DNA of 32,000 bases. Origin: Candidatus Saccharimonadota bacterium (lineage in GTDB: Bacteria; Patescibacteriota; Microgenomatia; UBA1406; GWC2-37-13). The translations under genes and the position numbers were made by a program. The notes under the pieces are model-generated. The model was not told the origin of the DNA. It made no database searches and saw only the letters and a list, made by a program, of their open reading frames with translations. How positions within the stretch are numbered: the first letter of the stretch is position 1; every line of letters starts with the position of its first letter. The stretch is taken from positions 360,001-392,000 of the forward strand of contig CP065004.1 of NCBI GenBank assembly GCA_016700135.1. Direction: 5' to 3'. This document shows, in pieces, positions 2,658-25,492 of the stretch.

Positions 2658-3101
2658 TTACTCTCCGATCTTGAGCTGGAAGATATCCCCTTTCCCTCCG
2701 AGGAAAAGCTGATCAATGGTAAAGAGAATCAGATACGCACTCACATACACGACAAGTCCTATCACCGCCCAGGTAAAGGTCTTTTTCGCATCCTCCACTT
2801 TCCCAGGGTCACCGAGAGATAAGAGATATTTGTAGCTTCCGATGACAAACATTACAAAGATTACCAGCAGAATCAATGCGTTAGTCATCAACAGCAGGTT
2901 TCCCGTCACGACTTCCAAACATTTCAATGTCGGTACCCCGTTTACAAGACAGGTATTTCCCGGAGCATCAGGCGGTAATCCCGTATCTTTCCCGTCCAGA
3001 TCATTCCATTCTTTGATCTGAGCGGATACCTGATACGGCATCAGAATAAAAAGAGAAATTATGAATGATGAGGTTAACCAATACGCAGTTTTGAATTTCA
3101 T
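2658..3101 (-). CDS. TrbC/VirB2-type (T4SS-like) pilin, paralog 1
   Basis: Signal peptide (..YQVSAQ), a short Cys-containing ectodomain, then two TM helices flanking a small charged loop (LGDPGKVEDAKK). This is the layout of conjugative-type pilins common in CPR genomes. Confidence 0.65.
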   Translation of the reverse strand: MKFKTAYWLTSSFIISLFILMPYQVSAQIKEWNDLDGKDTGLPPDAPGNTCLVNGVPTLKCLEVVTGNLLLMTNALILLVIFVMFVIGSYKYLLSLGDPGKVEDAKKTFTWAVIGLVVYVSAYLILFTIDQLFLGGKGDIFQLKIGE

Positions 3102-3147
3102 ATCATTAGTGTAGATTATGTAAGGCGGAATAGCAACGGTTGCAGGC

Positions 3148-3182
3148 CAAAAAAAACTGCTGCAGAAATATCCTGCAGCAGT
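3148..3182 (-). terminator. rho-independent terminator after pilin paralog 2
   Basis: Minus-strand sense reads ACTGCTGCAG-gatattt-CTGCAGCAGT, a perfect 10-bp stem, followed by an 8-T run (the A-run ending at 3156 on the plus strand). Confidence 0.85.
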
Positions 3183-3200
3183 TTATGAATTTCAAGTTGC

Positions 3201-3782
3201 TTATTTACAGGTCTTGGTCGGATCAAATGCGTCGATGACAACATTGGTACAACCGTTAGTTGCATTAACAGCGCTACACAGTCCCCCTGTATTGGAGACA
3301 CAGGTACAACAATTTTCTCCTGTTGTTGTCTCAACAAGTCCGGGAAGAGTCAAAGGACAGGAAAGTCCGAGACAGATTCTTCTCTTGAAAATAACCTGCT
3401 CGAGTGTCCAGATGATGGCAAGTACCGCAACGATCAAAATCATCCCGATTACCGCTGCCTGTATCTTTTCACGTGCTGCCGATACTGCATCCTTATCTCC
3501 TCCTGAGGTCACCCATGCAAAGGCGCCGATCAGCATGTAAAACAGTGCCGCAAGTCCCGCAATCACAAAGAAAGCGCGGATTGCAAATGTCAAAATATCC
3601 CCAAGTGACGGAATCTGAAATCCAAGTTCACCCGTCTGAATGGAGGTACATGCCGGGTATTCTTGATATTTAGCGGCCGAACATGCAGCTGAGACGTCTC
3701 CTCCTGTTAAAAAGATGAATGCGGTAAAGACCAGTGACAGTACCAGTCCGTGCATCATCAGTTTTCTATAAATATTTTTCAT
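3201..3782 (-). CDS. TrbC/VirB2-type pilin paralog 2 with Cys-rich C-terminal extension
   Basis: Signal peptide (..GGDVSAA), a two-TM pilin core with loop SGGDKDAVSAAREK, then a tail ICLGLSCPLTLPGLVETTTGENCCTCVSNTGGLCSAVNATNGCTNV.. with many Cys. TATTAT lies 6 nt upstream of the ATG. Confidence 0.7.
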   Translation of the reverse strand: MKNIYRKLMMHGLVLSLVFTAFIFLTGGDVSAACSAAKYQEYPACTSIQTGELGFQIPSLGDILTFAIRAFFVIAGLAALFYMLIGAFAWVTSGGDKDAVSAAREKIQAAVIGMILIVAVLAIIWTLEQVIFKRRICLGLSCPLTLPGLVETTTGENCCTCVSNTGGLCSAVNATNGCTNVVIDAFDPTKTCK

Positions 3783-3824
3783 AACCTGATAATAAATGTA
3801 AAAAATTAATAATAAAAGAAATAA

Positions 3825-4505
3825 TTACAATGCCGTGGCCTGCCCTGCATCATCACATTTATACTTTGCCGTATTGACAATCTGGCCAAGAGCATTCGTA
3901 TTTCTGTTCACACAGACACAGCAATAATCACCATCTGTAGTTCTCTCAATAAGTCCGGGAAGTGTCAAAGGACAGGAAAGTCCGAGACAAACTCTTCTCT
4001 TGAAGATTACCTGCTCCAATGTCCAGATGATCGCTAGTACAGCAACAATCAAAATCATTCCGACTACAGCTGCCTGTATCTTTTCGCGTGCTGCCGACAC
4101 CGCATCTTTATCTCCTCCTGATGTCACCCAGGCAAATGCTCCGATCAACATATAGAAAAGAGCTGCAAGGCCCGCAATCACGAAAAATGCACGGATCGCA
4201 AATGTCAATATATCCCCCAAAGACGGTATCTGAAACCCAAGCTCACCTGTCTCAATATTGGTACAGGAAGGAAACCGGCTTTTTGCATCGTTTGAGCTCC
4301 AAGTAAGTTCTGCGTTTGTTTTTGAATTGTATTGTTTCGGGCAATCAAGAGCTGCAGCATTTGCGTCTACAGCAAAAACAGACGCACCTGAGCTTACCAT
4401 CGGAAGGAAAAATCCGTATACAAAAATTCCAATGACAAACAAAAGTGAGATTTTGGAAAGTAGCGAATGTTTTGACATAGATAAATAAAATGGTATTTCC
4501 TTCAT
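3825..4505 (-). CDS. TrbC/VirB2-type pilin paralog 3 with a different Cys-rich C-terminal extension
   Basis: Its 100-aa core is identical to paralog 2 at 98 of 100 positions. The N-terminal ectodomain and C-terminal tail (..DGDYCCVCVNRNTNALGQIVNTAKYKCDD..) are divergent. The start is uncertain: ATG at 4505 or the in-frame ATG at 4478 (MSKHSLLSKISLLFVIG..). Confidence 0.7.
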   Translation of the reverse strand: MKEIPFYLSMSKHSLLSKISLLFVIGIFVYGFFLPMVSSGASVFAVDANAAALDCPKQYNSKTNAELTWSSNDAKSRFPSCTNIETGELGFQIPSLGDILTFAIRAFFVIAGLAALFYMLIGAFAWVTSGGDKDAVSAAREKIQAAVVGMILIVAVLAIIWTLEQVIFKRRVCLGLSCPLTLPGLIERTTDGDYCCVCVNRNTNALGQIVNTAKYKCDDAGQATAL

Positions 4506-4541
4506 TCTATATATATTTTTCTCTTCTTGTCAACACGTGAT

Positions 4542-6062
4542 TTAAGACTCTTTTGCTCGATACTGGAGAGCTTCGGTGATATGCGGAGTACTAATCTTTT
4601 CAGAACCATCTAAATCAGCAATTGTACGGGAAATTTTGATCATCTTAAAATATGATCGTGCGGAAAGACTGAGACGCTCAACAGCTTGATTCAGTATCTG
4701 AAATGCCTGTTCTTCAAGTGTGCAGCATCTTTTGGTATCCGATGAACTCATCTCACTATTAAACGAAATATTAGTTTTATCGAACCTCCGTTTTTGCATG
4801 AAACGAGCTTTTTCAACCCGAACACGAATTTCTTGACTCGATTCTGATGTATACGTCTCGGACAGTTTTCCCACCTCCACAGGCTGCACGTCAATATGCA
4901 GATCAATCCTGTCAAGAAGAGGCCCGGACAATCTTTTCTGATAACGGTATACAAGGCTTGGTGAACACTTGCATGCTCTTTTCGGATGTCCGAGATATCC
5001 GCATGGACAGGGGTTCGATGCCGCCAGAAGAAGAAATCTGGCCGGAAATGTCAAAGTGCCTGCAGCCCTGGAGACCGTCACAATACCGTCCTCTATCGGT
5101 TGTCTCAAAGCCTCAAGGACACTTCGTGGAAATTCGGGAAACTCATCAAGAAACAATACGCCCCGGTGGGACATCGATATCTCGCCTGGAGTTGGATTGC
5201 TCCCGCCGCCGATCAATCCGACGCGGGATATCGTGTGATGTGGAGCACGGAAAGGACGAACTCCGTCAAAAATCTCTCTTGAGATTTCACCTGTGACGGA
5301 ATAAATTTTGGCTACTTCCAGCATCTCGCGTTTATCAAGTAAAGGAAGAATAGTCGGCATTGATCTTGATAGTAAAGTTTTACCTGCCCCCGGTGAGCCT
5401 TTCAGATGCACATTATGAAATCCCGCAGCCGCAATCTCAAGAGCTCGCTTTGCCTGTTCCTGACCCTTGATCTGAGAAAAATCATACAAACCGGGCGGGT
5501 TTCCGTTTTCTCTCCGGTCAACAACGTGTAAATATCGGTCTATACGTTCTTTTCCTGTAAGATGAGATATCAATTCTTCAAGGGAACCTACCGGATAGAT
5601 ATCAATATCATCAAAAATTGATGCTTCTTCAACATTTTCTTTCGGAATATAAACTGTGGTAATTTGTTTTTCTTTAGCCAGAATAATGAGCGGGATAATC
5701 CCGTTCACACGCCGTACATGCCCTTGAAGTGAAAGCTCTCCGATAAACATGCTTTCTCTAAGTGCGGACTGTTCCAAAACCCGGGAAGACGTCAGAATAC
5801 CTATTGCAATCGCAAGATCAAAAGCAGTTCCTGATTTGGGAACATCGGCGGGAGCGAGATTGACGGTGATGCGAGAATCAGGCATTTCATATCCGGCATT
5901 GGAAACTGCAGTCCTGACCCGCTCTTTTGCTTCATCAATTGATTTTCCAGGCAGGCCGACAATAGTAAAAGTGGGAAAGCCGCGGCCGGCAACGTCTACT
6001 TCAACTTCTACAAGCACTCCGTGAAGACCGAGAGTTGATCCGGCTGTAACTTTTGAAAGCAT
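4542..6062 (-). CDS. comM: YifB/ComM family Mg-chelatase-like AAA+ ATPase
   Basis: Full-length 506-aa match to the ComM pattern: N-terminal Lon-protease-like domain, Walker A GSPGAGKT, ..LFLDEFPEF.., C-terminal ChlI-like region. TATAAT lies 7 nt upstream of the ATG. Confidence 0.92.
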   Translation of the reverse strand: MLSKVTAGSTLGLHGVLVEVEVDVAGRGFPTFTIVGLPGKSIDEAKERVRTAVSNAGYEMPDSRITVNLAPADVPKSGTAFDLAIAIGILTSSRVLEQSALRESMFIGELSLQGHVRRVNGIIPLIILAKEKQITTVYIPKENVEEASIFDDIDIYPVGSLEELISHLTGKERIDRYLHVVDRRENGNPPGLYDFSQIKGQEQAKRALEIAAAGFHNVHLKGSPGAGKTLLSRSMPTILPLLDKREMLEVAKIYSVTGEISREIFDGVRPFRAPHHTISRVGLIGGGSNPTPGEISMSHRGVLFLDEFPEFPRSVLEALRQPIEDGIVTVSRAAGTLTFPARFLLLAASNPCPCGYLGHPKRACKCSPSLVYRYQKRLSGPLLDRIDLHIDVQPVEVGKLSETYTSESSQEIRVRVEKARFMQKRRFDKTNISFNSEMSSSDTKRCCTLEEQAFQILNQAVERLSLSARSYFKMIKISRTIADLDGSEKISTPHITEALQYRAKES

Positions 6063-6090
6063 ATATGTAATTATATAACATATATGACAG

Positions 6091-6127
6091 AATAAAACTA
6101 TACCCCGTTTCCGGGGTATGAGTTTTT
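6091..6127 (-). terminator. rho-independent terminator after the 679-aa surface protein gene
   Basis: Hairpin ATACCCCG-tttc-CGGGGTAT (6100-6119), with T-rich runs on both strands (AGTTTTATT in minus sense). Confidence 0.8.
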
Positions 6128-8167
6128 TTACATTCCTTCTGTTTCAGCAGCCTTTTTCTTGTAGACATATACTGCTAGCAGCGCACCGGCTCCTCCTACA
6201 AGAAGAAGCAAGATTGCGGCAACAAGGATCATCGGGTTCCGCTCACCTTCTTCAGTCGTTTCTGCTTGCTGAGTAGCCTGTTTGTCTTTTGTCTGGTCTT
6301 CAGTCATGATCGGACTGACCTGCTGTTCGGGTACAAATTCCGGAGTGACTGTGCGGCGCGGATTAGTCGTTGCGGTAACCGGAGTGTATAAAGCAATCTG
6401 CTCCGCCGTCAGGAACTCTTTATTCTGATTGAGATAATCTGCAATCCTGAGTTCTGCAGTCGGCTTGTACTCTTCTCCGTCTGCTGTCAGGTACTTGATG
6501 ATATACGGTTCTTTCGGGATATTTTCTGATGTAATTCTGTAGAAACCGTTATTATCAATCGGCGCAACATATTGAGGCACCGGCATACTGATGAGGTACA
6601 GGCCTACATATCCTCCGCGGATAAGCTTTCCGTCTTGATCGTATGCATAACCTTCCAGATAGGAAGGGATTGAATTGAGGGCAAAGCCGCCTTTCAACGA
6701 TTCTGTCTCAGATGACGTCATTGTCTGAAGATTTATCTTTCTGAATGACCTCTTGTAATATTCACCGGGTTGAAGCTCTGACTGCTTCAAAGTTACATTA
6801 AATCTTCCTTCTTTGTCAGCCCCACCGTTAAGTTTTCCGAAGATTTTTCTGTCACCGCAGACCTCAACACCGTTGTTCAGCCTACAGGTGTCAACAATAA
6901 CTTCGGCAAACGGATGTGAGACGCGCCCCTGAAATATGAGATCTCCGTTTGCTGCCGTTTTACTTTCGGAAGACAGGACAACCAAATCATAAGTTTTTCC
7001 AATGCCGTCCGTCGGTATAAACGGAATATCTCTGTGTTGGATAGCACCTCTTTGAAGAATTGCCGGGGAATCATTGAGATAAAAGTCAGAATAAATCTGG
7101 GCAGCATTTCCTTTTTGAGTCCAGTCTTTGGTCAAAGGATGGACATAACTTGCCAAGACCGGTGTCAGTCGATAGTCACCGTCCTCGACAAAGAATGAGA
7201 AGTCTCCGGCTGATCCTGTCATAAACGGATTCATAATCAGATTGTTTCGCTGCTTTGCATATCCTGCATCAAATGCCCCTTGAGGGTTTTTCTGAAGGAG
7301 TGAAACGGAAACACCCGGGATCGGTTCAAGTGACACAGAGTCAAAGACACGACCGTACGGATCCCAACCCGGTCCGAAATCACACTCATCCTGCTGGAAC
7401 TCCGTGACATCCCTCCATGTCAATTGGTCCTGTTGTTGTCCGCCCGTCCCCGATGCATCACGGCTTGCCGGTGTCGGGAGTACCTCCGGAACATAGTAGA
7501 CGACGTATTTACGTCTTGCCGCATACATCGTATATCCCTGTACTTCTCCGAACGTGACATTCAACTTCCCGGTTGCGTCTGTTTTCAGTTCTGTTGACGC
7601 ATCTGCTTGTCTGAACGGATCATTAACATCATTCAGATCTGAATTGGATTTATAGAAAAATCCGTGAGTATCGTTTAAGACAAATGAAGCCCCGTCACGA
7701 TTTTTGACGGTGTCGCCGTTTATTCCGTATGTGACACGATCAAGCTGATTGAGGTATGATTTCACGTCACAGGATGCACTGTCGCTTCCTCCAGCACAAT
7801 AAAATTGTTTATCGTTTTCCGAAAAACCGGTCGTACAGTACCAGTCAGCTTCACCGTCATTGTTATCATCACGTGCCGGTTCATCAGGCTTTATACATTC
7901 CATAAGAATGACTTTTTGGCCCGCAGGAATTGACAGTCCCCGGAAATCAAGCTGTGCGCGATGTCCCCAGTGCGAACTTGTATGAATCAGATCTGCCTGA
8001 GGATTATTTTTTGAAAGAGGGGCACAGTTCTCATTTCCTGCTCCGCCGCCACAGTGCTTGAAGGGCACACAAAGCGGCTGCCACACTGCAGGAGGAGTTT
8101 CTGCCGAAACGGTTTGAGGAATAATTAAAAGGGTTAGTAAAAGAAGGAAAATGCGTATATGTCTCAT
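6128..8167 (-). CDS. secreted, C-terminally membrane-anchored surface protein with carboxypeptidase-regulatory-like beta-sandwich modules (adhesin-like)
   Basis: Signal peptide MRHIRIFLLLLTLLIIPQTVSAE. Two segments have the G-x-V-x-D...G-x-F/Y-x-F...G-x-Y pattern (GRVFDSVSLEPIPGVSVSL..GDFSFFVEDGDYRL and GYAYDQDGKLIRGGYVGL..NGFYRITSE). C-terminal TM helix ILVAAILLLLVGGAGALLAVYVY followed by KKK. Confidence 0.7.
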   Translation of the reverse strand: MRHIRIFLLLLTLLIIPQTVSAETPPAVWQPLCVPFKHCGGGAGNENCAPLSKNNPQADLIHTSSHWGHRAQLDFRGLSIPAGQKVILMECIKPDEPARDDNNDGEADWYCTTGFSENDKQFYCAGGSDSASCDVKSYLNQLDRVTYGINGDTVKNRDGASFVLNDTHGFFYKSNSDLNDVNDPFRQADASTELKTDATGKLNVTFGEVQGYTMYAARRKYVVYYVPEVLPTPASRDASGTGGQQQDQLTWRDVTEFQQDECDFGPGWDPYGRVFDSVSLEPIPGVSVSLLQKNPQGAFDAGYAKQRNNLIMNPFMTGSAGDFSFFVEDGDYRLTPVLASYVHPLTKDWTQKGNAAQIYSDFYLNDSPAILQRGAIQHRDIPFIPTDGIGKTYDLVVLSSESKTAANGDLIFQGRVSHPFAEVIVDTCRLNNGVEVCGDRKIFGKLNGGADKEGRFNVTLKQSELQPGEYYKRSFRKINLQTMTSSETESLKGGFALNSIPSYLEGYAYDQDGKLIRGGYVGLYLISMPVPQYVAPIDNNGFYRITSENIPKEPYIIKYLTADGEEYKPTAELRIADYLNQNKEFLTAEQIALYTPVTATTNPRRTVTPEFVPEQQVSPIMTEDQTKDKQATQQAETTEEGERNPMILVAAILLLLVGGAGALLAVYVYKKKAAETEGM

Positions 8168-8173
8168 AATTAC

Positions 8174-8224
8174 ATAATTGCAGAGAAATACAATATTGTC
8201 AATCTTCTTTATCTATACTAATAT
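8174..8224. promoter_or_regulatory. back-to-back divergent promoters with overlapping -35 hexamers
   Basis: Plus strand: TTGTCA (8196-8201), 17 nt, TAATAT (8219-8224). Minus strand: TTGACA (revcomp of 8197-8202), 17 nt, AATTAT (revcomp of 8174-8179), which is 6 nt before ATG 8167. Confidence 0.55.
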
Positions 8225-8257
8225 GAAATAAGAGGCATATCTCTTAACCCTTTGTTT

Positions 8258-11200
8258 ATGAACATACGTAAGCTCATCATCATCGCAGCTTTTTTCTTCT
8301 TTTTTGTCCCGGCTAAACCGGTGAGTGCACAGATGGATTTTTACGGTTTTCCGCCTGTTGATAAGCCTCCGATTTTCTGCGGAAACCGCGAATCTCTGAC
8401 ATGTCCGAATGAAGTCGAGCCGATATATCAGGCCCTGCGTGATGCTGGGGAAAAAGACATATGTGCGACGAGCTACGCGGATTTCCTAACAGATCCGAAA
8501 ACAAAACATTACTGGATAGAAGACCCTGCCATTACGGCTCAGGGAAAAGCCGATGAACGTGCCAGACAGTTTTTGTACTGGGTCCTGAATACCAGCGCAA
8601 TTGACAATGCACGAGTTCTTACTGATATTTGGCAGTATACTGCGATGCTTGCTCTCTTCGGTGTAGTACTCGTAGCAGCTGTCTTCGGAATCGGCTATAT
8701 CATCAGTCAGCGTACAAACTATGACTTTAAAATCCGGATCTGGCCGACGATTATCAAAATAGGAACCATGTTGTTGTATGTGGCCTTCTCAGCTTCTATC
8801 GTGTTTTTCCTGATCCAGTTCTCGGAGGTCCTGATGAAATTTTCATACGAAAATCTGGGAGGTCAGAAGCTCTTTAATATATACTTTGCGGCAGACGACA
8901 ATCTTCTTGGCCGGACTGAAGCCAGCTACACAACATTCGTCGGCTGTCGTGACCTGAATATCCGTGTGCAGGAAGGAGTCGATGCTGAAATCTTTATGCT
9001 GAAACTGACCAATGTCAGTTACTACGTGATGGGAAGCATGCTCCTCTTGAGAAAAATTCTTCTCTGGTTTTTGCTTTTTGTATCGCCGTTTTTGGCGCTT
9101 CTTATGCCGTTTATTTTTATCAGGAACACGGGATGGATTTGGATCGGAGTATTTTTTCAGTGGCTTTTTTACGGACCTCTTCTCACTCTCTTTTTAGGTG
9201 CAATGGCAAAAATTTGGGAGTACGGTATTCCCTTTAGTTTTGACTTTTCACGTGTTGAAAAAATCGGCGGGTATATTTATCCGACAGGTATAAATATCGT
9301 ATACGGAGGACCTGCTCAAAGAATCTATGGAGCCGCTTCAGAAATACCTTCCCGTCCTATTAGCGCCATGAACAACGGCAGCTATGTCGACACCTTTGCC
9401 GAATATGTCATCACACTTCTCATGCTGTGGGCTGTCACATTCTTCCCCTGGTGGCTCCTTCGAATTTTCCGTGATTATTGCTGTGATGGGATATATGCTA
9501 TGAAGAATATTCTTCTGGCAATGTATGACAACATGCGCGGCGGACCTTCAAAAGGACCTACTCCATCCGGCCCCACAGGTCCTACTATGAAGTTGGATCG
9601 AAATATCCCGATCGAAACCGATATTAAAGTCTCTCTCGGATCACTTGCCCAGATGAAGAAATCCATGACAATCGATCTGGCGAAGAACCTCAATCTTTCC
9701 GCTTCCCGTATCACGGATATCGCAAGAGTCGAAACAAACAAGCAGATGCAAAGTGTCGTGAACCAAAATCTCACCTTCCTCGCAAATCCAGTAAAAGCGC
9801 AAAGACCTGCCGAAAGACAGCAGTATATGAATCTGCGGTCTGAGCTTTTTGCACGAGCTATTAAGAATGACTCAATGGCCCGCACGATCCTTGCCTCTAC
9901 TTCGACATCCGTGTCCGAGAAAACAAAGATCCGCGAATCGATCATCAAATCAATGCCTCAGACAATTACGATTTCTCAGGTTGTGACCGAAGAGACCCAC
10001 GTGCCGAAAGAAAAAGTCACGAATATAACAAATACCTATACCAAGAATATTACCAACAATACAAAAGCTATAGAATCGATTGCAAGATCCACGAACACTC
10101 CTCCGCAGATTGTAAACAACATTTTGAACTCATATAACAAGACAACGAACAGTCCAGTATCCAAAGTCGTCAACAATATTGCCAAAGAGAATAACACTTC
10201 AGTGAGTACCGTAAAACAGGTCCTCCAGCAGGCAGGTACAATCAGCTCACAGGCACATATGCTCCGACAGATTGCCACGGTGGAAAAACTGGACAGTAAA
10301 CAGATTACGAAGGTTCTGACCAGTATCAGATCCTCAGTCACCCGTGAAGAATCTACCGTCCAGGCAGTGGCCTCAACTACCCAACTTCCGCCGCCTCAGG
10401 TCGAACAGCTTGTCCAGCAGGCTTTTACTTCCGCAGTATCAAATGAACAGGTGATTGAGCAAATCGCACCGCCGACCGGTCAGCCGACAGTAATTGTCAA
10501 AGCGGTCGTCCAGTCTTTCGTCAAAAACATGAGTATGCCTGCAACGAGATTGGTAGAAAAAATTTCCGATGAGACAAAAGTCGAAAGAAGTACCGTTTCC
10601 CGTATCCTGAATCAGACATCAAAAGTAATGGAAAACAGCACTCTGGTGAAAGAAGTGGCCGAGAAAAATAATGTCACCACTCATGACGTCCAGACCGTCA
10701 TTGAAAAAGCCGTAGAAGTCTCAACAGTACAGACAAATCAGCCGGCCATTGCCGGTGTCGTCAAAGCAGCATCAAGTCAAACCACTGTAACTTCAAAAAC
10801 AATCCAAAATGTCATCAACGAAATTGCAAACAACCCAACAACAATCAAAAGCGTCGCAAATCAAACGAACATGCAGGAACATGAAGTTTCCAGTGTCATC
10901 AAAAGTTATGCCAATAACCTGAACCAAACGTCCGAGAATATCACTCACAAGATTGCACAGGAAACACAAATAAATGAAGGACAGGTCCAGAACATTCTGC
11001 AGAATGTTTCACAGGCAGTAACAAACTCGAAGACCGAACAAGCAACGATCGCAAAATCATCAAATGTCCAGAATGAAACCGTGCAGAAGATTTCACAGTC
11101 CATAGGCAGAACCGTTGAGGTTTCAAAAGACAAAACGGCACCGGCTGTCCAAAACATTGCAACCGCCTCATCCAGCGAAAGTACGACTATTCAGCAGATT

Positions 11201-12910
11201 CTTGAGACCTTCAGTCAGAACACAAACCTCACTACTCAGGTTGCTGAAGAAACCAATATGGAACAGCAGACTGTCTCACAGGTCCTCCAGTCATTCAGCA
11301 CCCATCTGAATGAATCCTCAAACACCATTATCAAATCAGTGGCATCAGACACAAAGGTGAGCGAAGAACATGTGAATTCAATTATTCAGTCAGCTGCAAC
11401 CGCTGTCTCAAATTCAAATACCTATCAGGAACAAATCACCCAGATTACGAATGCTCCTGTTGAAACAATCAAACAGATTGCTCAATCAGTCACGACTATC
11501 ACTCAAAAAACTGATACGACCCCGGTTGCAGATACCATCATTACGGATACCGCGACTAGTACAGCCTTGACAGAAGGAGATGTCACCAATGTCATCCAGA
11601 CATTTGCATCCAATGAAGAACTTATAAATCAGGTGGCACAGCATACTCAGATCGATGCAGCAACAGTCAAAAATGCATATGCCAGTTATACGCAGCACCT
11701 GACCGAGGCTCCGACAGAACTGGTGAAATCCGTGGCTACTGAAACTAACCTGACCCAGGAACAGGTCCAGAATATCATGCAGTCTTCTTCTGAAATATTG
11801 ACAAATGCTCCGCAAACTGTCACCCAGATCGCACAAACCACGAACATGTCCGAAAGCAATGTACAGAAGATTGCCAATGCAATGCCTCAATCAGTAACAA
11901 CTACTGCCGGACCGGAGACATCTATCATCAAACAGGTTTCACAGCAATCAAATATCTCAGAGACCGAATCACAGAAGATTATCCACAATCTTATGATGAC
12001 CGCCATCCAAAACGAAACCTTTGTCGAAAACCTGGCCAATCAGACACAGCTGAAAACACAGCAGGTGAAAAACATTATGTCAACCTATGCCAATAACATC
12101 AATCAGCCGTCAGAAAAAATTGTCCAGACAATCAACGAATCATCAGGAATACCAAAAGCAAGTGTCCAGACAGTTCTCATAACCCTTGCTGACTCCGTCA
12201 TCTCATCCGATCAGATCGTGGCACAGGTAGCCGAACAGGAAGGAATGGAACCTCAGCAGGTCAGCGATGTCATGCAGAAGCAGATGGAAGTAGCAAGCGA
12301 ACCGGAAAAACATATCGAAAAAACAATCTCGATTCCTCAGAGTATCTCACTCGAAGACTATGAGGAAGTGAAAGACATGTGGACTAAGCACTATGAGGAA
12401 GGTGAAGTTCCCGTCACGGATACGATCCAAACCCGAAAAGACTGGGTCGATCAGGAGATTGTATATATCACAAATACCCTCAATAAAATCCTCTCACCTG
12501 ATGAGCGTATGCAGCAGGAAGGACTGGACGAGCTCGGCTATCTCCTCCCGATTTTCCTGATCAACAACCTGAAGGGAGAGGAACTGATCGTGTATCTGAA
12601 AGCGAAGCTCGAAGCCGCCAAATTGACACAAAAGATACTCGAGCGCGAAGAAGCCGTAAAAGACCAGATGAAGAAAGATCAGGGCGAGGAAGAAGAAGTC
12701 CTGGTCGATGTGGCAAAGAAAGAAGAAGAAAATAAAGAAATGCACATGGATCTGGATGACGAAGAACAGGCTCCGAAAAGCATCGAAGACCGAGTCAAAG
12801 CCGTCCAAGAAAAGCTCGAATCTGTAGACACCCCCGAACCGACCGGTGATCAGACCGCCGATTCCATCAATGCCATTAAATCAAAACTACAAGAAAAGGC
12901 TGACAAGTGA
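8258..12910 (+). CDS. giant (~1550 aa) polytopic membrane protein, possibly TrbL/VirB6-like at the N-terminus, with a long HTH-like repeat tail and an acidic coiled-coil C-terminus
   Basis: Signal peptide MNIRKLIIIAAFFFFFVPAKPVSAQ (ATG 8258 preferred over the TTG at 8252). At least 5 TM helices in aa ~130-410, a Gly/Pro linker GGPSKGPTPSGPTGPT, ~25 degenerate repeats, then a KE-rich tail. The VirB6-like assignment is inferred from topology and the pilin neighbourhood only. Confidence 0.8.
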   Translation: MNIRKLIIIAAFFFFFVPAKPVSAQMDFYGFPPVDKPPIFCGNRESLTCPNEVEPIYQALRDAGEKDICATSYADFLTDPKTKHYWIEDPAITAQGKADERARQFLYWVLNTSAIDNARVLTDIWQYTAMLALFGVVLVAAVFGIGYIISQRTNYDFKIRIWPTIIKIGTMLLYVAFSASIVFFLIQFSEVLMKFSYENLGGQKLFNIYFAADDNLLGRTEASYTTFVGCRDLNIRVQEGVDAEIFMLKLTNVSYYVMGSMLLLRKILLWFLLFVSPFLALLMPFIFIRNTGWIWIGVFFQWLFYGPLLTLFLGAMAKIWEYGIPFSFDFSRVEKIGGYIYPTGINIVYGGPAQRIYGAASEIPSRPISAMNNGSYVDTFAEYVITLLMLWAVTFFPWWLLRIFRDYCCDGIYAMKNILLAMYDNMRGGPSKGPTPSGPTGPTMKLDRNIPIETDIKVSLGSLAQMKKSMTIDLAKNLNLSASRITDIARVETNKQMQSVVNQNLTFLANPVKAQRPAERQQYMNLRSELFARAIKNDSMARTILASTSTSVSEKTKIRESIIKSMPQTITISQVVTEETHVPKEKVTNITNTYTKNITNNTKAIESIARSTNTPPQIVNNILNSYNKTTNSPVSKVVNNIAKENNTSVSTVKQVLQQAGTISSQAHMLRQIATVEKLDSKQITKVLTSIRSSVTREESTVQAVASTTQLPPPQVEQLVQQAFTSAVSNEQVIEQIAPPTGQPTVIVKAVVQSFVKNMSMPATRLVEKISDETKVERSTVSRILNQTSKVMENSTLVKEVAEKNNVTTHDVQTVIEKAVEVSTVQTNQPAIAGVVKAASSQTTVTSKTIQNVINEIANNPTTIKSVANQTNMQEHEVSSVIKSYANNLNQTSENITHKIAQETQINEGQVQNILQNVSQAVTNSKTEQATIAKSSNVQNETVQKISQSIGRTVEVSKDKTAPAVQNIATASSSESTTIQQILETFSQNTNLTTQVAEETNMEQQTVSQVLQSFSTHLNESSNTIIKSVASDTKVSEEHVNSIIQSAATAVSNSNTYQEQITQITNAPVETIKQIAQSVTTITQKTDTTPVADTIITDTATSTALTEGDVTNVIQTFASNEELINQVAQHTQIDAATVKNAYASYTQHLTEAPTELVKSVATETNLTQEQVQNIMQSSSEILTNAPQTVTQIAQTTNMSESNVQKIANAMPQSVTTTAGPETSIIKQVSQQSNISETESQKIIHNLMMTAIQNETFVENLANQTQLKTQQVKNIMSTYANNINQPSEKIVQTINESSGIPKASVQTVLITLADSVISSDQIVAQVAEQEGMEPQQVSDVMQKQMEVASEPEKHIEKTISIPQSISLEDYEEVKDMWTKHYEEGEVPVTDTIQTRKDWVDQEIVYITNTLNKILSPDERMQQEGLDELGYLLPIFLINNLKGEELIVYLKAKLEAAKLTQKILEREEAVKDQMKKDQGEEEEVLVDVAKKEEENKEMHMDLDDEEQAPKSIEDRVKAVQEKLESVDTPEPTGDQTADSINAIKSKLQEKADK
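9677..12290 (+). repeat. protein-level tandem array of ~25 degenerate ~30-34-aa helix-turn-helix-like units in ~130-aa super-repeats
   Basis: Recurrent [IVL]xx[IV][AS]xx[TS]x[IVLM]xxxx[IV]xx[IV][ILM], for example ISDETKVERSTVSRILNQ, IAQETQINEGQVQNILQN, VAEETNMEQQTVSQVLQS. Every fourth unit ends in [ST][YF]xxx[LI]N, at nt ~10130, 10514, 10904, 11291, 11684 and 12083. Confidence 0.75.
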
Positions 12911-14329: not shown

Positions 14330-14941
14330 CTACCTACAGTTCACCCAGGCTTTGTCACCTCCCCGGGACAGTTTGAAGGCTGTTGTTTCTATCGCTTCTT
14401 TTGCACCGAATCTGAGATCCGGATTTGTATCCGCTCCCATTTGAACCCGGGTTGCCTGCCAGGTCTCCACTGAGTACTGGAACATGCCGCCATACTCCCC
14501 GTTGTTTGCTCCAGGGTGACCGCCTGATTCACAGTATGCGATTTTTTTCATTACTTCCTTGTCCACTCCATACTGTCTGCTGTATTGGTCGAAATAGTTT
14601 TCAAAATCACTGGTCGGCATCGGAGTCGGGGTGGAAGTAGGAGTAGGACTCGGAGTATTGGTCGGGGTGGGAGTGTTGGTGGGAGTGAGTGTCGGTGAAG
14701 GAGTAAATGTCGGGGTAGGGGTTTGCGTAGGGGTAGGTGTCAGTGTCGGTATTATCACTACCCCGAGTACCTGACCGGTCGCCCTGACCCGATACGTCAC
14801 AAACAAAGATATGAAAAGCAGCGCGACTAGTGCCCATTTGTATTGTGAAAATAGGGAAACTGTTGCATCAGTCCGCCGCAGAGGACGCTTTCTGGTTGTG
14901 TGATACAAAGAATCTAAATACATACAAAAATAACAAAACAT
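14330..14941 (-). CDS. membrane-anchored Rpf-like transglycosylase-domain protein with a long Pro/Thr linker
   Basis: TM helix WALVALLFISLFVTY, a ~46-aa PT linker, then IAYCESGGHPGANNGEYGGMFQYSVETWQ, matching the resuscitation-promoting-factor type transglycosylase-like motif. The start is uncertain. The ATGs at 14941 and 14923 overlap the upstream gene by 74 and 56 nt. Confidence 0.7.
   Translation of the reverse strand: MFCYFCMYLDSLYHTTRKRPLRRTDATVSLFSQYKWALVALLFISLFVTYRVRATGQVLGVVIIPTLTPTPTQTPTPTFTPSPTLTPTNTPTPTNTPSPTPTSTPTPMPTSDFENYFDQYSRQYGVDKEVMKKIAYCESGGHPGANNGEYGGMFQYSVETWQATRVQMGADTNPDLRFGAKEAIETTAFKLSRGGDKAWVNCR
14612..14749 (-). repeat. low-complexity Pro/Thr linker-coding repeat
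   Basis: Encodes PTLTPTPTQTPTPTFTPSPTLTPTNTPTPTNTPSPTPTSTPTPMPT. The DNA is an imperfect (ggt/gg(a/g)gt)n-type repeat. Confidence 0.9.
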
Positions 14942-16184
14942 TGATTGCCGAAAGGATTATGACTATCGGATCTGATGATAGAGCCTGCACGATCGGCTCA
15001 ACTTTCGGAACCGACCAGCTTTTATATAAATTCAGAAAACTAATAAGTGAAAGTATACCCCATGCATACATAATGGAACGATATTTCACTGCCGGGACAA
15101 GAAGAAACGGCAGAATAAGTATAAGATACCGTTCATGCATTTTGGTTAAAAACAGGAATGACGCAAAAGCACAGAGTGAAAGTGCAATAAACAATGACAA
15201 CTTGCCCGAGCGGTTTTTCCAATATAAAACGGATAAGGCTAAGATAAACCCTCCGGCGATAATTGTCCCGACAGTCCCGTACGTAATACTGCCGATCAAT
15301 GAAGTCTCTGCCGGAACGAAAAACAATGGCGGATACAGGGCCCAGGCATTGTATGCGGCATTCGTTACCGCTCCGATACTCTGCGTATCAAGTATTCCTT
15401 CTTTGTAGAGAATAAACGGATACAGCGGGTCTCCCGGTTTCTGTGCCATCGGCTGAAATGCAAGCCAGAACAACAAAATACTTATCACAGCACCCTTCAA
15501 AGTTGTTTTCAAACCGTATCTTGAAAAAAATGAGATCATAAAAACCGGCAAAAAAACAAATACAGTAGGTTTAACAAGAACGGCAGCTGTCAGAATAACG
15601 AAACTCCAGTAAGGTTTCTTTACAAAAAAACTAAAATATACCGCCAGTGCCATAAGAAACAGCGGGATACTGTCAATCTGTCCGAAGAATGCGCTGTTGT
15701 AAAAGAAGGTCGGATGAAGAAGAATTAGGGACATGACCAGGACTTTCAGGTGTTTTCTTTTCGGATAAAGTTTTTCGGTGATCTGTGCTAAGATCCACGC
15801 AAGACCGAAATCGGAAAGGATCGCCGGGATTTTCATCAGACCTGCCTGAAAATGCAGACGCTCCATAAAAATCACAACGACAGAAGGAAATGCCGGAACG
15901 GTAAGATTGAGTTGCCAGAACGTCCCGAACAACCATTGATACAACGGATAAAACGGTGCAAACAATCCGATCGCAAGCGGCGGATAATTCGGGTATTCCG
16001 TACCATAAACGTCGATTGACCGCGTTTCATAAAACGCATAAAGCCCACGGTTCCATACGTCTTTTGCCCAGGAGATATGATTAAGCACATCAAAGCTGAA
16101 ATCGACAAACATAATACTGAGCCGGATGAAGATACCAAGAAGGATAATAACAAAAAAAGGAGACATCATTTTTTTCAGCGACAT
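14868..16184 (-). CDS. GT-C fold polyprenol-phosphate-sugar-dependent glycosyltransferase (DUF2029 / Gpi18-like mannosyltransferase type)
   Basis: 438 aa with ~11 TM helices. The first loop is FDVLNHISWAKDVW..YGTEYPNYPPLA, typical of this GT-C group. TATAAT lies 8 nt upstream of the ATG. Confidence 0.7.
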   Translation of the reverse strand: MSLKKMMSPFFVIILLGIFIRLSIMFVDFSFDVLNHISWAKDVWNRGLYAFYETRSIDVYGTEYPNYPPLAIGLFAPFYPLYQWLFGTFWQLNLTVPAFPSVVVIFMERLHFQAGLMKIPAILSDFGLAWILAQITEKLYPKRKHLKVLVMSLILLHPTFFYNSAFFGQIDSIPLFLMALAVYFSFFVKKPYWSFVILTAAVLVKPTVFVFLPVFMISFFSRYGLKTTLKGAVISILLFWLAFQPMAQKPGDPLYPFILYKEGILDTQSIGAVTNAAYNAWALYPPLFFVPAETSLIGSITYGTVGTIIAGGFILALSVLYWKNRSGKLSLFIALSLCAFASFLFLTKMHERYLILILPFLLVPAVKYRSIMYAWGILSLISFLNLYKSWSVPKVEPIVQALSSDPIVIILSAINVLLFLYVFRFFVSHNQKASSAAD

Positions 16185-21398: not shown

Positions 21399-22244
21399 TC
21401 AATCCGTCGTGACGGACGGCAGATAGAGAAAAGTGTCCTCACTCTGGGCCGATTCTGCTGTGATGGTGACGCCGCCGTCTACAAGCTCCGTTTGCGTCGG
21501 AGCGTCGGTTACGAAACTCTCAATGCGAAGGTGGGAGGCTCCGACCTCCATACCTCGGAATCTGAGGAGCAAAAGCTCCCCATCAAGCAGGAACTTATCC
21601 GACCCGCCGCCGTAGAATACGAGTCGACCCTCCTTGACGAGGATGTCGTTGAGCGCAATGTCGGAACTACGAGGCAGAATCGATCCGCCTTCAAGATCCA
21701 GGAATTCGAGAGACTCCGAATCAAAGTGGACTTCGCCTGCGAAGAGCTTGGCTGAGACAGTCGACGAGACGGTGAGCGGGATCGTGATCTCATACGTCGT
21801 AGTGACGGTTGCAGTGGGCAGCGACACAGTGACGCCCGGAAGACCTTGCGGCCGCTCCGTCGTCAAGGTGAGCCGAAGTTCCTTCATATTGCCCCACCAT
21901 TCTCCGATGATGGGGTCGCTGAAAAAGAATTTGCCGCCTACGAAAAACTCGACGCCGGGGTCGAACCGTCCTGATTGGTACACAGTCATGAGAGGGATGA
22001 CGCCGTACTGCAGCGTCTCCCCGCAGCCCACGACGTATCCTGAATCGTCGACTGCGATGACTTCCAAGCCTTCCGGGACCGGTACTCCGTTGTCGTAGGC
22101 ACGCCCGTAGACGTACCCCCGAATCGAACCACCCATGATTGCCGGGCAATCCGATTCCTCCTCTCCCTGTGCGTTTACCACCCCGAAAAGACCGAGGGCA
22201 GCGATAGCGATAAGAAGAGCTCCGAACCACTTTCTTGTTTTCAC
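21399..22244 (-). CDS. secreted protein with a C-terminal cohesin-like beta-sandwich domain
   Basis: GTG start with signal peptide MKTRKWFGALLIAIAALGLFGVVNAQ. The C-terminal half (ITIPLTVSSTVSAKLFAGEVHFDSESLEFLDLEGG...LLLLRFRGMEVGASHLRIES) fits the cohesin pattern. High GC. Confidence 0.65.
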   Translation of the reverse strand: MKTRKWFGALLIAIAALGLFGVVNAQGEEESDCPAIMGGSIRGYVYGRAYDNGVPVPEGLEVIAVDDSGYVVGCGETLQYGVIPLMTVYQSGRFDPGVEFFVGGKFFFSDPIIGEWWGNMKELRLTLTTERPQGLPGVTVSLPTATVTTTYEITIPLTVSSTVSAKLFAGEVHFDSESLEFLDLEGGSILPRSSDIALNDILVKEGRLVFYGGGSDKFLLDGELLLLRFRGMEVGASHLRIESFVTDAPTQTELVDGGVTITAESAQSEDTFLYLPSVTTD

Positions 22245-22795: not shown

Positions 22796-24862
22796 CTACT
22801 GCAGCGGATCGGGGCCTTCCCCTAAGGCTCCCTCGACATAAGCGGAGACCAGCGGAAGGTACAACTCAAGCTGCAGGATCGGCATCTCGTCCTGGGGATC
22901 CAACGACATTGTCGGACCGTTGACTGCCGAAAGCTCATCGACCGTGATTGACTCCAACGTGAGCACTTGCGTGCCTTCCGTCGGAATAATCGTAAGATCA
23001 ACCGAACTGACAGGATCAGTCATGGAAGCCAAGGGTACGAAGCCGGCGTTCGGTTGAACAGTGTCGAAACCTGCCGCCATCACAGACTGAACACTCTGAT
23101 CAAACTGGAGTGCCAGGCCGCTAAACGGCTGTTCCGAGCTGATGCGGACCACCAGAGGCTGTGTGCTGATCACGGTCGTCGTGATGTTGGGCGTCTCTGC
23201 CACTTCAGCCGCAGCAACGGAATCACCGGGCAACCAGTTGCCGGTGACGTCACACATCAACCAAAGCTTGGTGATATGCCCACTGCTTGTCGGACCGTTC
23301 ACTTCAACAGTGATTGCTTCGCCGCGCCAATCGCCGCAAGCAGCATCCGAATCATTGTAACGCGCAGCGAACCGCAGGATGCGGTTGGCATCGTAGCTCG
23401 TGATGGGTTGCTTATCGTCGGCGTCCGCGCTCCACTCCATATACGGAATACCGAAGGTGGTGCGGAGAGCCGCCCGCTGATGAGTAAGTGCGGCATCCAT
23501 AGAGCTTACGGCATGCCGATCGTACTCGGACTTCTGCTTGGAGAAAGTCGCGGTCCACGTTCCCATAGTCGGGAGTGCGGCAGTGTAGCCGCCGTCCCAA
23601 CCGGTCGTGGCCGTGACAACGTCGATCCCGTTAGACAGAGTGACCGTCACATCCTTCATGGGCTTATTGCCGTTCCAGAAGTAGACAGCGCCCGTCCAGA
23701 GGCTGGCGTTTACGGTCACCTGACCGTATTCACCCGCCACGGGCATCGAACCGCCGTTGATCAAGACCTCCGGCACCTGTACGCCCGAAAGCATCACAGG
23801 AACGGTCCCTGCCCGCAGCGCCCGAAACTTCAGGCGAAGCATGAGGCCGGAATTGGTCGTGATCGGCTGTTGTCCCTGTCCGGTGATGATAATCGAGCCG
23901 GGAGTACCCGTGTTCAGGATGTACTGGAAGTTCTGCGTCGCCGTTCCTGCCTGATCAATACCCACAAACGAAAGATGCGTCGGCGAATACTGCAGCCGCG
24001 CATCGATGCTGTAGATCTGACCGGTGTTGTTGCGGAATTCCAGCGGAACCATGATCTCATTCCCCACGACGGTTGTCGTATCGGGGATGGTCAAAGTCAC
24101 AGGCAAGGTCCAGTCCCAACTGACCAGAAGACACAAAGGTGCCTGGTCGGTGGGCTGTAGCTTGATCTCAACGCTGCCTTGATTCTGATTCAGGCGCCAG
24201 CCTTCATAGGCATTGTTAGCCAGTTGGCGCCAATCAGTTGCCCCCACCAGTCGATAGTAGATCTCCCGCCCGACAAAGATGTTCTGGATAGTCGGATAGG
24301 TAGAGCCGTCATTCCAACGGTTGATTACGACCATCGGGCCGTTCAGGCACGTTGTTGCGTCATGCATGCTGTTGGTCTGACCACCATGAGACATACTCAC
24401 GTGGACCGCAACAGGATCAGTTTCCTGTCCGTTGCGAACGAAGTAGGTGCTTTTGGGTGTCATGTTAGCAGAAAGCTGACGCATGTCGATCTGGCCATTC
24501 TTGAGGCGGGCCTGGATGACAAAGTCACTGAACACCGTAGAGCTTGTGTTGTTGACATACACCTGGAGGTTACCAGGGTAACCCCAGTGGTGTCGGACAC
24601 TACTGCCCATCACGGGTTCAGCCGCCGCCCGAACTTCTTCGCCGTTCTCCAAAACGCTCAAGTCGCCTTCGAGAAGACCCTTCAAAACCACCTCATCGGT
24701 GATCTGAACGGGCTGCGAATCGACTTCTTGAGCATAGGCCGAGACGTGGGTCGCGAACATAGCCAAAAGTGCCATAAGCACCGCGACTGCCGCGAGTACG
24801 GTCCAATTCACACTCCGCTGCGGCATCGCCGCTACTTTGACCTGATACTTCTTGGTATACAT
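22796..24862 (-). CDS. secreted multidomain protein with a cohesin-like domain and a dockerin-like module
   Basis: Start moved to ATG 24862 (MYTKKYQVKVAAMPQRSVNWTVLAAVAVLMALLAMFATHVSAYAQE), which has a GAGAGGA SD 4 nt upstream. Cohesin-like segment at ~23705-24112 (VVGNEIMVPLEFRNNTGQIYSIDARLQYSPTHLSFVG...LRLKFRALRAGTVPV). Dockerin-like segment at ~23355-23525 (AVSSMDAALTHQRAA ... DADDKQPITSYDANRILRFAA). Confidence 0.65.
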   Translation of the reverse strand: MYTKKYQVKVAAMPQRSVNWTVLAAVAVLMALLAMFATHVSAYAQEVDSQPVQITDEVVLKGLLEGDLSVLENGEEVRAAAEPVMGSSVRHHWGYPGNLQVYVNNTSSTVFSDFVIQARLKNGQIDMRQLSANMTPKSTYFVRNGQETDPVAVHVSMSHGGQTNSMHDATTCLNGPMVVINRWNDGSTYPTIQNIFVGREIYYRLVGATDWRQLANNAYEGWRLNQNQGSVEIKLQPTDQAPLCLLVSWDWTLPVTLTIPDTTTVVGNEIMVPLEFRNNTGQIYSIDARLQYSPTHLSFVGIDQAGTATQNFQYILNTGTPGSIIITGQGQQPITTNSGLMLRLKFRALRAGTVPVMLSGVQVPEVLINGGSMPVAGEYGQVTVNASLWTGAVYFWNGNKPMKDVTVTLSNGIDVVTATTGWDGGYTAALPTMGTWTATFSKQKSEYDRHAVSSMDAALTHQRAALRTTFGIPYMEWSADADDKQPITSYDANRILRFAARYNDSDAACGDWRGEAITVEVNGPTSSGHITKLWLMCDVTGNWLPGDSVAAAEVAETPNITTTVISTQPLVVRISSEQPFSGLALQFDQSVQSVMAAGFDTVQPNAGFVPLASMTDPVSSVDLTIIPTEGTQVLTLESITVDELSAVNGPTMSLDPQDEMPILQLELYLPLVSAYVEGALGEGPDPLQ

Positions 24863-24866
24863 GATA

Positions 24867-24874
24867 TCCTCTCT
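24867..24874 (-). promoter_or_regulatory. Shine-Dalgarno AGAGAGGA
   Basis: TCCTCTCT on the plus strand, 4 nt from ATG 24862. Confidence 0.6.
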
Positions 24875-25492
24875 TGTACTTGATTGTGTTAATTGAAGGC
24901 CGGATGATAGCAATGAAACACATTCCGGGACGTACGGGGATCAGGGCATTTCTGCCCTTTATCCTCTATTCTTTTTTTCCTTTCTTATGATTTTCATCTT
25001 CCTTTCGTCCTGACACAGTGAGTGTCAAAGGTAGATGATTGCGAATTCTAAAGCTAAGGGATTAGCCTCAAAACTTCGCAATCATAACCTCAAAAGACTA
25101 AGAAAAATGATATTGTCATAAAAATTGACATATTTCGTATAAGCTCAATATGAGCTTATTTCATTTTCCACAAGTTGTTAATGTGCCCCAACTTCGTTGA
25201 ATTTGAGCTCAACTTCGTTGGACAATAGCAAGTCTGCGACTTTGTTATCTCGTTTAGACACTATTCCCGCTAAAAGCTGTTTCAGGGGTAAGGATCTAAG
25301 TGAAGATAATCAGTACGTAGAATTCGAATTGTGTTGAGGTGAAAAGTAACAGCTTGTGTTACATTACACACTCAATGTGTATATTATACCACAAAATGCC
25401 ATATTTATCTACTACTATAGGATATATAAAAGCTGATATACTCCGTGTGTATTTTTACTCAAAAACCTTTGAAACTATAAGTATAATAACGT

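Follow-up and report, generated by a model that had tools for sequence, protein, structure and literature searches.

A probable pilin, membrane-platform and surface-protein module of the patescibacterial type IV secretion system in a Microgenomatia genome

The stretch of DNA analysed here, referred to as the window, comprises 32,000 nt (positions 360,001 to 392,000) of contig CP065004.1 from the genome of a Candidatus Saccharimonadota bacterium (GCA_016700135.1), placed by GTDB in the Patescibacteriota, class Microgenomatia. It carries a cluster of six genes that is a candidate component of a type IV secretion system (T4SS). Three tandem pilin genes (pil1, pil2 and pil3), comM and a gene for a 679-aa membrane-anchored protein lie on the minus strand, and a gene for a very large polytopic protein, here called the giant protein, is transcribed divergently from them (Table 1). 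These six open reading frames (ORFs) had been singled out in a first-pass annotation made from the sequence alone, and the ORF list confirms all of them at the positions claimed; for the giant protein, the reported length of 1550 aa applies to an ATG lying two codons after a TTG start that gives 1552 aa. The larger ORFs of the window were scanned with Pfam and the cluster genes also with NCBIfam, and all statements below about family matches within the window refer to these scans. Outside the cluster, the larger ORFs specify housekeeping and envelope proteins, one ABC transporter and a few proteins without a family match.

Table 1. Features of the gene cluster and its surroundings, in window coordinates
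Feature	Positions	Strand	Length	Remarks
pil1	2658–3101	minus	147 aa	VirB2-like T4SS pilin
Terminator-like hairpin, pil2/pil1 gap	3154–3184	minus		14-bp stem, then T-run; pattern match
pil2	3201–3782	minus	193 aa	pilin paralogue
pil3	3825–4505	minus	226 aa from first ATG	pilin paralogue
Promoter-like site, comM/pil3 gap	4504–4533	minus		TTGACA-18-TAGAAT, 11/12 matches; sigma-70-like pattern
comM/yifB	4542–6062	minus	506 aa	Mg-chelatase-like AAA+ ATPase, ComM family
Intrinsic-terminator-like hairpin after the 679-aa gene, before comM	6099–6120	minus		ATACCCCG-GAAA-CGGGGTAT and T-rich tail; pattern match
Anchored surface protein gene	6128–8167	minus	679 aa	predicted type-I anchored protein
Divergent intergenic region, anchored-protein/giant genes	8168–8251		84 bp	
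Promoter-like site in divergent region	8202–8174	minus		TTGACA-17-AATTAT; pattern match
Promoter-like site in divergent region	8196–8224	plus		TTGTCA-17-TAATAT; pattern match
Giant protein gene	8252–12910	plus	1552 aa from TTG; 1550 aa from ATG two codons on	
Giant protein, N-domain	8252–9547	plus	aa 1–432	signal peptide, Cys-containing ecto-domain of ~100 aa (conserved Cys), five transmembrane (TM) helices
Giant protein, Gly/Pro linker			aa ~431–445	short
Giant protein, repeat array	9908–12295	plus	aa ~553–1348	~24 two-helix, helix-turn-helix (HTH)-like units of 28–33 aa
Giant protein, C-terminal domain and tail	12302–12910	plus		conserved ~110 aa (1351–1460), then acidic tail 1461–1552
Transglycosylase-like ORF	14330–14941	minus		PF06737, E 1.1e-6, 29.7 bits (cutoff 27)

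Pil1 passes the cutoff of the Pfam family T4SS_pilin (PF18895; E 7.6e-11, 42.4 bits, cutoff 26.6), matches the NCBIfam Mbov_0395 pilin-like model at E 2e-4, and has a signal peptide, two cysteines in the mature N-terminal segment, and TM segments at residues 61–97 and 108–135. The PF18895 scores of Pil2 (E 0.0028, 18.1 bits) and Pil3 (E 0.011, 16.3 bits) lie under the cutoff of 26.6, and these two proteins are counted as family members because they are homologous to Pil1 (BLASTP E 5e-7) and show matches, albeit weak, to the NCBIfam pilin-like model (E 6e-4 and 2e-3). The layout proposed for the three tandem, same-strand genes, each coding for a leader and two helices around a short charged loop, is borne out by hydropathy, the loop being SLGDPGKVEDAKK in Pil1 and SGGDKDAVSAAREK in Pil2 and Pil3. 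Their assignment to the T4SS_pilin/VirB2-like family from the candidate phyla radiation (CPR) is likewise upheld, by PF18895 for Pil1 and as paralogues for the other two.

Pil2 and Pil3 are 79% identical overall, and over a shared core of 108 codons there are 65 identical codons and 37 synonymous versus 6 non-synonymous differences. The two-helix core is also nearly unchanged (single substitutions) in the orthologues of two close relatives (L010 and L011), whose genomes show 97% and 82% identity to the window over the N-domain of the giant protein, while the tails differ. Between related genomes, the mature N-terminal segments and the Cys-rich C-terminal tails vary in sequence and in length. 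Both termini face outward in a VirB2-type pilus, and because of this the pilins would consist of a fixed assembly core with variable ends exposed on the outside of the pilus that they are predicted to form, which accords with what has been published. A near-constant core combined with termini that vary even among close strains is the pattern expected of host-range determinants.

Orthologues of the giant protein range from 607 to 2233 aa (median 866), with conserved N- and C-terminal domains and a variable middle. The AlphaFold2 (AF2) model of the N-domain contains five long helices, in agreement with hydropathy, and since the N-terminus is placed outside and is followed by five TM helices, the repeats would lie in the cytoplasm (N-out/C-in). 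Lys and Arg are denser in loops 1 and 3 as well as behind TM5, and Cys is absent beyond residue 411; both agree with this predicted topology, which is like that of VirB6 of Agrobacterium tumefaciens (N-terminus outside, five TM helices, C-terminus inside). A repeat hidden Markov model (HMM) built from the giant protein itself detected 24 units, and autocorrelation of the sequence peaks at 32, 129 and 260 aa, giving a super-period of about 130 aa. The repeat region is rich in Thr, Ser, Gln and Asn, lacks Cys, and is matched weakly by HTH families of Pfam when scores are summed, with no single repeat significant. The array is probably old, as no tandem repeat at the DNA level was reported by Tandem Repeats Finder in the giant gene. 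The C-terminal domain has no Pfam match, and is conserved in the consensus both of the Roizmanbacteria homologues and of the divergent subfamily considered next.

The first-pass annotation had described the giant protein as VirB6-like. No TrbL/VirB6 model of Pfam or NCBIfam is matched by it, whether the whole protein (E-values up to 1) or the N-domain alone (up to 10) is used, and what support exists is transitive. A profile search with the N-domain retrieved 1071 cluster representatives, the homologues being annotated as Candidatus Roizmanbacteria, Microgenomates or Patescibacteria, in keeping with a CPR origin of the window. The Roizmanbacteria set and a 41-member divergent CPR subfamily are the same family according to hhalign (100%, E 1e-80), and 20 of the 41 divergent members match TrbL (PF04610) at E <= 0.01 (best 3.9e-6), over TrbL positions 1–181 of 215; no other membrane family recurs among the 41. 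Aligned to seven VirB6 proteins of the MPF_T class, the divergent family profile gave an hhalign probability of 72% (E 3.3e-5, 154 columns), and aligned to TrwI of R388 alone (sequence from NC_028464) the divergent set gave 51%. One family member carries the NCBI name 'type IV secretion system protein', and, as would be expected of the VirB6 slot, the giant protein is the sole polytopic protein in those modules of relatives that are described below as layout B. These comparisons point to a probable, though distant and transitive, homology of the N-domain to TrbL/VirB6. Of the two relationships proposed at the outset, that to TrbC/VirB2 has HMM support through the PF18895 match of Pil1, whereas that to TrbL/VirB6 has none directly and draws moderate support from intermediates.

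The 679-aa protein has a signal peptide, a Cys-containing N-terminal domain and a C-terminal TM helix (aa 643–670) followed by a KKK tail. Its AF2 model, for which database homologues were used, has a mean predicted local distance difference test score (pLDDT) of 80.9 and shows beta-sandwiches only as far as aa ~573, then a disordered linker and a helix at 645–677. The top Foldseek matches are BcpA (E 5.5e-6, probability 0.99) and EbpB, both pilins of Gram-positive bacteria, followed by an S-layer protein and macroglobulin (MG) domains; TM-scores are low (0.10–0.18), so that the likeness concerns no more than the type of domain. The earlier description of an anchored beta-sandwich protein is therefore sustained by the signal peptide, the TM anchor and the modelled sandwiches, but the carboxypeptidase-regulatory-like signature attributed to it is not significant in the window protein (PF13715, E 0.17; the PF13620 cutoff is not reached). 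The PF13620 domain is carried by most of 52 homologues of the protein, and the orthologue at L005 passes with 48.8 bits (cutoff 32.3). Going by the model, the protein is a type-I anchored chain of immunoglobulin (Ig)-like beta-sandwiches, and it is a candidate stalk or adhesin. Distant homologues of the anchored protein have identities down to about 20–30%.

Gene neighbourhoods were compared using 80 loci fetched around relatives of the N-domain and several more found by exact protein look-up, 84 non-redundant loci in all, on whose six-frame ORFs the window proteins and marker proteins were mapped with phmmer. Three layouts were distinguished. Layout A, which is that of the window, has the order YqeY, DivIC, GT2, on the minus strand one to five pilins, comM and the anchored protein, then sometimes a cohesin protein, the giant protein and a nudix protein. 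Layout B, seen in about 15 loci, has VirB4, a TraC-like protein of about 216–233 aa, PrgI/VirB3, S1, DUF5667, cohesin, one or two anchored proteins, the giant protein and M24, with VirB4, the TraC-like protein and PrgI four to six genes from the giant gene. Layout C has VirB4, intervening genes, dnaA, dnaN, PIN, two small genes, a pilin, SpoIID, cohesin and the giant protein. The giant gene has the anchored protein as its next upstream gene, either directly or with the cohesin gene in between, in 51 of the 67 loci that were informative. Upstream sequence of 9 kb or more was available for 46 non-redundant loci; among these, an anchored protein is found in 38, cohesin in 31, a pilin in 27, comM in 20 and VirB4 in 17, and a pilin or VirB4 is within reach of the giant gene in 40. 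Conservation of the neighbourhood had been named at the outset as a check on the cluster, and the arrangement does recur in dozens of related genomes, beyond chance. In two distant CPR loci (L099:9707-16944 and L100:9698-15473), a PF18895 pilin gene lies 3–12 nt upstream of the gene for a giant-family protein; in both, a ClpB-like double-AAA+ gene follows one or two genes on, and VirB4 is not found within 10 kb. The DUF5667 and S1-domain proteins are fixed constituents of layout B modules (L055:6228-6770, L097:6573-7097, L098:6679-7203). Many of the GTDB representative records with this locus (L010, L013-L015, L020, L021 and others) are titled 'uncultured Gammaproteobacteria bacterium' and look like mislabelled metagenome-assembled genomes.

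The first-pass annotation had also stressed that no secretion ATPase was in view, and this is borne out: none of the larger ORFs of the window matches VirB4, VirD4, VirB11, PilB, PilT or a secretin, and none of the ORFs in the 32 kb resembles the VirB4, TraC-like or PrgI proteins of relatives in phmmer searches. The only NTPase or P-loop matches found by Pfam among the larger ORFs are ComM and the ABC transporter. Two explanations had been offered, components encoded elsewhere or a reduced surface system, and it is the first that is favoured. About 20 related loci have VirB4 no more than 10 kb away from the orthologous giant gene, and Table S1 of PMC12102498 gives 'Presence of VirB4: Yes' for two relatives with layout A, GCA_002792315.1 (L009, L022) and GCA_002788865.1 (L023). 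Since these layout A relatives are VirB4-positive and VirB4 occurs near orthologous giant genes, the ATPase of this genome, VirB4 included, would be encoded at another site rather than be missing from the system. Across the best 120 relatives listed, all with VirB4 beside the giant gene, VirB4 is 83–93% identical and thus under very strong constraint in this clade; the VirB6-like N-domain, at about 45–65% identity among relatives, is far less conserved.

ComM matches TIGR00368 over almost its full length (aa 7–502; E 6.7e-179, 595.6 bits, cutoff 362.4) and has all three Pfam domains ChlI, Mg_chelatase and Mg_chelatase_C, and its identification as a bona fide YifB/ComM protein is secure. Its transcription is another matter. 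Promoters and terminators were called as consensus pattern matches only, and among these comM has a terminator-like hairpin ahead of it and a promoter-like site behind it (Table 1), for which reason comM would be transcribed separately, and the 679-aa gene, comM and the pilin genes appear to form three transcription units, not one operon. In the 84-bp divergent region, the minus- and plus-strand promoter-like sites overlap. A TATAAT-like hexamer 6–7 nt ahead of the comM ATG (~6068–6073) and a -10-like hexamer (8174–8179) equally close to the ATG of the 679-aa gene suggest leaderless mRNAs. Upstream of pil3, the -10 hexamer overlaps the first ATG (4505), so that the true start may be Met10 (position 4478). 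Judged from these signals, comM is most likely a neighbour that has its own transcription and was kept in place by ancestral synteny, and not a part of the machine; of the earlier proposal, the identity of the gene holds and the implied functional role in the cluster is hypothetical.

Taken together, the results indicate that the cluster probably supplies the pilins, the membrane platform and the surface protein of the known patescibacterial T4SS, with the motor encoded elsewhere and with the giant protein as a very divergent, repeat-expanded VirB6. A working model can be outlined as follows. VirB4, a TraC/TrsD-like protein and PrgI/VirB3, supplied from elsewhere on the 1.45-Mb contig, would dock on the extended-VirB6 platform, as gene linkage and remote homology suggest. 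The five-helix VirB6-like domain would make up the membrane platform; pilins would be extracted from it, and substrate would pass through it. Going by family membership and the conservation pattern, Sec would insert the pilins, which would then be drawn out into a pilus that displays their variable Cys-rich termini. The Ig-like anchored protein, to judge from its fold and linkage, may span or decorate the envelope as a strut or adhesin and contact a host cell. The transglycosylase-like product of the ORF at 14330–14941 might open the wall, and, more speculatively, the HTH-like repeats and conserved C-terminal domain could recruit substrate or ATPases.

Several observations weigh against this assignment. 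The VirB4 of this very genome is unseen, the 32-kb window holding none. Besides the lack of any direct TrbL/VirB6 match for the window giant protein, the PF04610 matches of its relatives are mostly below the gathering score (two examples have 18–19 bits against 25.9), and the Roizmanbacteria-only profile does not align to TrwI. A Foldseek search of the PDB with the N-domain model returned no VirB6 or other T4SS chain (best E 0.58), a weak negative given a pLDDT of 70 and the difficulty that long helical membrane proteins pose for Foldseek, and profile searches of PDB sequences with the Roizmanbacteria and broader alignments gave only coiled-coil noise. All comparison loci come from one class-level clade, and part of the synteny is thus phylogenetic inertia. 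With regard to comM, the transcription signals that set it apart rest on consensus matches, and in 36 of 84 loci the gene has its place between pilins and anchored protein, adjoining the pilins in 29 of those 36, even after inversions (L024, L025). Such adjacency outlasts what is expected of a pure passenger gene and keeps a DNA-related role open.

That last point leads to the alternative that survives best, although we consider it unlikely: a ComB-like DNA-uptake machine in which pilins, VirB6-like protein and surface protein import DNA, the cytoplasmic HTH-like repeats receive it, ComM processes it for recombination, and comM is a functional member of the system. Apart from the position of comM, it draws on the weak matches of repeat units to HTH DNA-binding families, and on the finding that patescibacterial T4SS loci are generally relaxase-less and in ABY1 are co-localised with comF, recG and radA (PMC12102498). 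However, comM is missing near the giant gene in both VirB4-containing layouts and is divided in the window from the anchored-protein gene by a terminator-like hairpin and from pil3 by a strong promoter-like site, and even the best HTH matches of the whole giant protein include no stretch (0) that passes alone. In Southlakia the T4SS is essential and comEC dispensable, so that essentiality does not act via ComEC-dependent DNA uptake (PMC12857230). A more specific proposal, in which the repeats capture nucleic acid on the inner side of the channel and hand it over to ComM, the co-located helicase, is highly doubtful; if true, it would give CPR bacteria a second, ComB-like route of DNA import or exchange beside ComEC and type IV pili.

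A somewhat less probable alternative than DNA uptake is that the genes are functionally unrelated neighbours kept together only by slow genome rearrangement in a narrow clade. The comparison loci are all from Roizmanbacteria or Microgenomatia, the housekeeping flanks (yqeY, divIC, GT2, nudix) are equally syntenic, and each gene apparently has its own promoter or terminator signals. Against this, a neighbour-joining tree of the N-domain shows layout A across the whole clade and layouts B and C as derived clades, and because of this the linkage of the giant gene to T4SS genes is seen to have survived independent rearrangements, in three layouts, with housekeeping flanks that differ between them. 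Pilin genes paired with a giant-family member are also seen again in distant CPR lineages, and the remote TrbL/VirB6 homology of the giant protein argues likewise. Finally, that the pilins, polytopic and anchored proteins form an attachment structure independent of any VirB4-type motor is very improbable, for although the 32-kb window is without a T4SS or type IV pilus ATPase and the two distant CPR loci have their pilin and giant-family pair without VirB4 within 10 kb, orthologues adjoin VirB4, TraC-like and PrgI genes in about 15 loci and lie near VirB4 and dnaA in others, relatives with the window layout are VirB4-positive and VirB4 is strongly constrained in the clade, and we know of no VirB2-type pilus that assembles without VirB4.

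Patescibacterial T4SS are thought to mediate the epibiotic lifestyle, and to our knowledge they are the first T4SS shown to be essential for growth of the bearer. The cluster has several features in common with such systems: as in Southlakia epibionticum (Wang et al. 2023, as cited in PMC12102498 and PMC12857230) and in the survey of PMC12102498, it is chromosomal, relaxase-less and found in a monoderm lineage, with a tandem array of divergent PF18895/VirB2-like pilins and a VirB6-like polytopic protein, and its relatives have VirB4, a TrsD/TraC-like protein and PrgI/VirB3, with virB4 near dnaA in some. The same survey (Quinonero-Coronel et al. 2025) describes Microgenomatia as having abundant VirB2 arrays, virB4 near dnaA and a VirB3 that is often not beside VirB4, calls VirB6 'scarce' in this class, 'suggesting extreme sequence divergence', and found no adhesins (PMC12102498). 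The present locus differs in that the pilin/VirB6-like part is physically apart from the VirB4 module, comM is embedded in it, the VirB6-like protein is undetectable by standard HMMs and carries an HTH-like repeat array of ~900 aa, and a CarboxypepD_reg/Ig-like anchored protein, joined in relatives by a cohesin protein, is a conserved partner, neither being listed in PMC12102498. The statement of the first-pass annotation that the composition is not that of a textbook T4SS or type IV pilus is correct, yet it does match the patescibacterial T4SS as published between 2023 and 2025 (PMC12102498, PMC12857230).

By the definition that PMC12857230 sets out, the giant protein qualifies as an 'extended-VirB6'. 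Like F-plasmid TraG and the Rickettsiales paralogues such as Anaplasma VirB6-4, as far as Alvarez-Martinez & Christie 2009 are relayed in PMC12857230, it has at least five hydrophobic helices, a very large hydrophilic C-proximal domain and repeat extensions of lineage-variable length, but its extension is without sequence similarity to theirs, its repeats are HTH-like units of 28–33 aa predicted to be cytoplasmic, and its N-domain is remote from TrbL/VirB6. The likeness to the MPF_T proteins, R388 TrwI and A. tumefaciens VirB6, covers the central helices over ~154 columns; it amounts to ~25% identity and holds at the profile level only, with no Foldseek match, and the giant protein has in addition the Cys-containing ecto-domain and a C-terminal extension of ~1100 aa. 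The Helicobacter pylori ComB system likewise combines a VirB2/3/4/6-type set without relaxase with a linked transformation gene (comM here), but comM is apparently transcribed separately in the window and DNA is only a candidate substrate. The sortase pilins BcpA and EbpB, the best structural matches of the 679-aa protein, are chains of CnaB/Ig-like beta-sandwiches as well, but the 679-aa protein is anchored by a C-terminal TM helix and lacks both the LPXTG motif and the pilin motif. A sortase pilus was rejected for want of the LPXTG motif. A type IV pilus was also rejected, as the pilins are of the wrong type, with the VirB2 layout, and no class III prepilin leader or PilB-type ATPase was matched among the larger ORFs scanned.

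The type of system is thus already known (PMC12102498, PMC12857230) and the locus is a divergent member or variant of the patescibacterial T4SS. Not contained in these two reports are the giant family as a divergent extended VirB6 of Roizmanbacteria, its HTH-like repeat array, the anchored and cohesin proteins as partners, the split-module organisation and the comM linkage. With roughly 80 relatives, the locus provides a candidate VirB6, within a large and mostly unannotated family, for the Microgenomatia, in which VirB6 was reported to be scarce, and the Ig-like anchored protein, like the cohesin protein of relatives, is a candidate host-contact component. The comparison of loci points to a modular and dispersed T4SS in these genomes, and because its genes are split into modules, surveys confined to 20 genes on either side of virB4 miss parts of the machine.

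In many loci that share the window layout, a gene for a secreted transglycosylase-like protein is again found downstream of the giant gene, and its product is a possible VirB1-type cell-wall opener, although membership in the system is uncertain. In the window this ORF overlaps by 74 nt a 438-aa polytopic ORF without family match (14868–16184), which is detected in six loci overall; the window and the relative closest to it (L010) are the only ones in which it accompanies the transglycosylase-like gene. No Rfam elements were found in the window. A 273-aa ORF (26342–27163, minus strand) corresponds to the C-terminal domain of the Fe-only hydrogenase large subunit (E 4e-30), the rest of the hydrogenase being missing. 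Between 21000 and 25000, the window is GC-rich (0.51–0.59 compared with ~0.43 elsewhere), and two ORFs located there (21399–22244 and 22796–24913, both minus strand) code for secreted cohesin-domain proteins, one of them also with a CarboxypepD_reg domain. These were considered as counterparts of the cohesin gene found beside the giant gene in relatives, and rejected, as there is no similarity. The GC-rich region may have been acquired horizontally.

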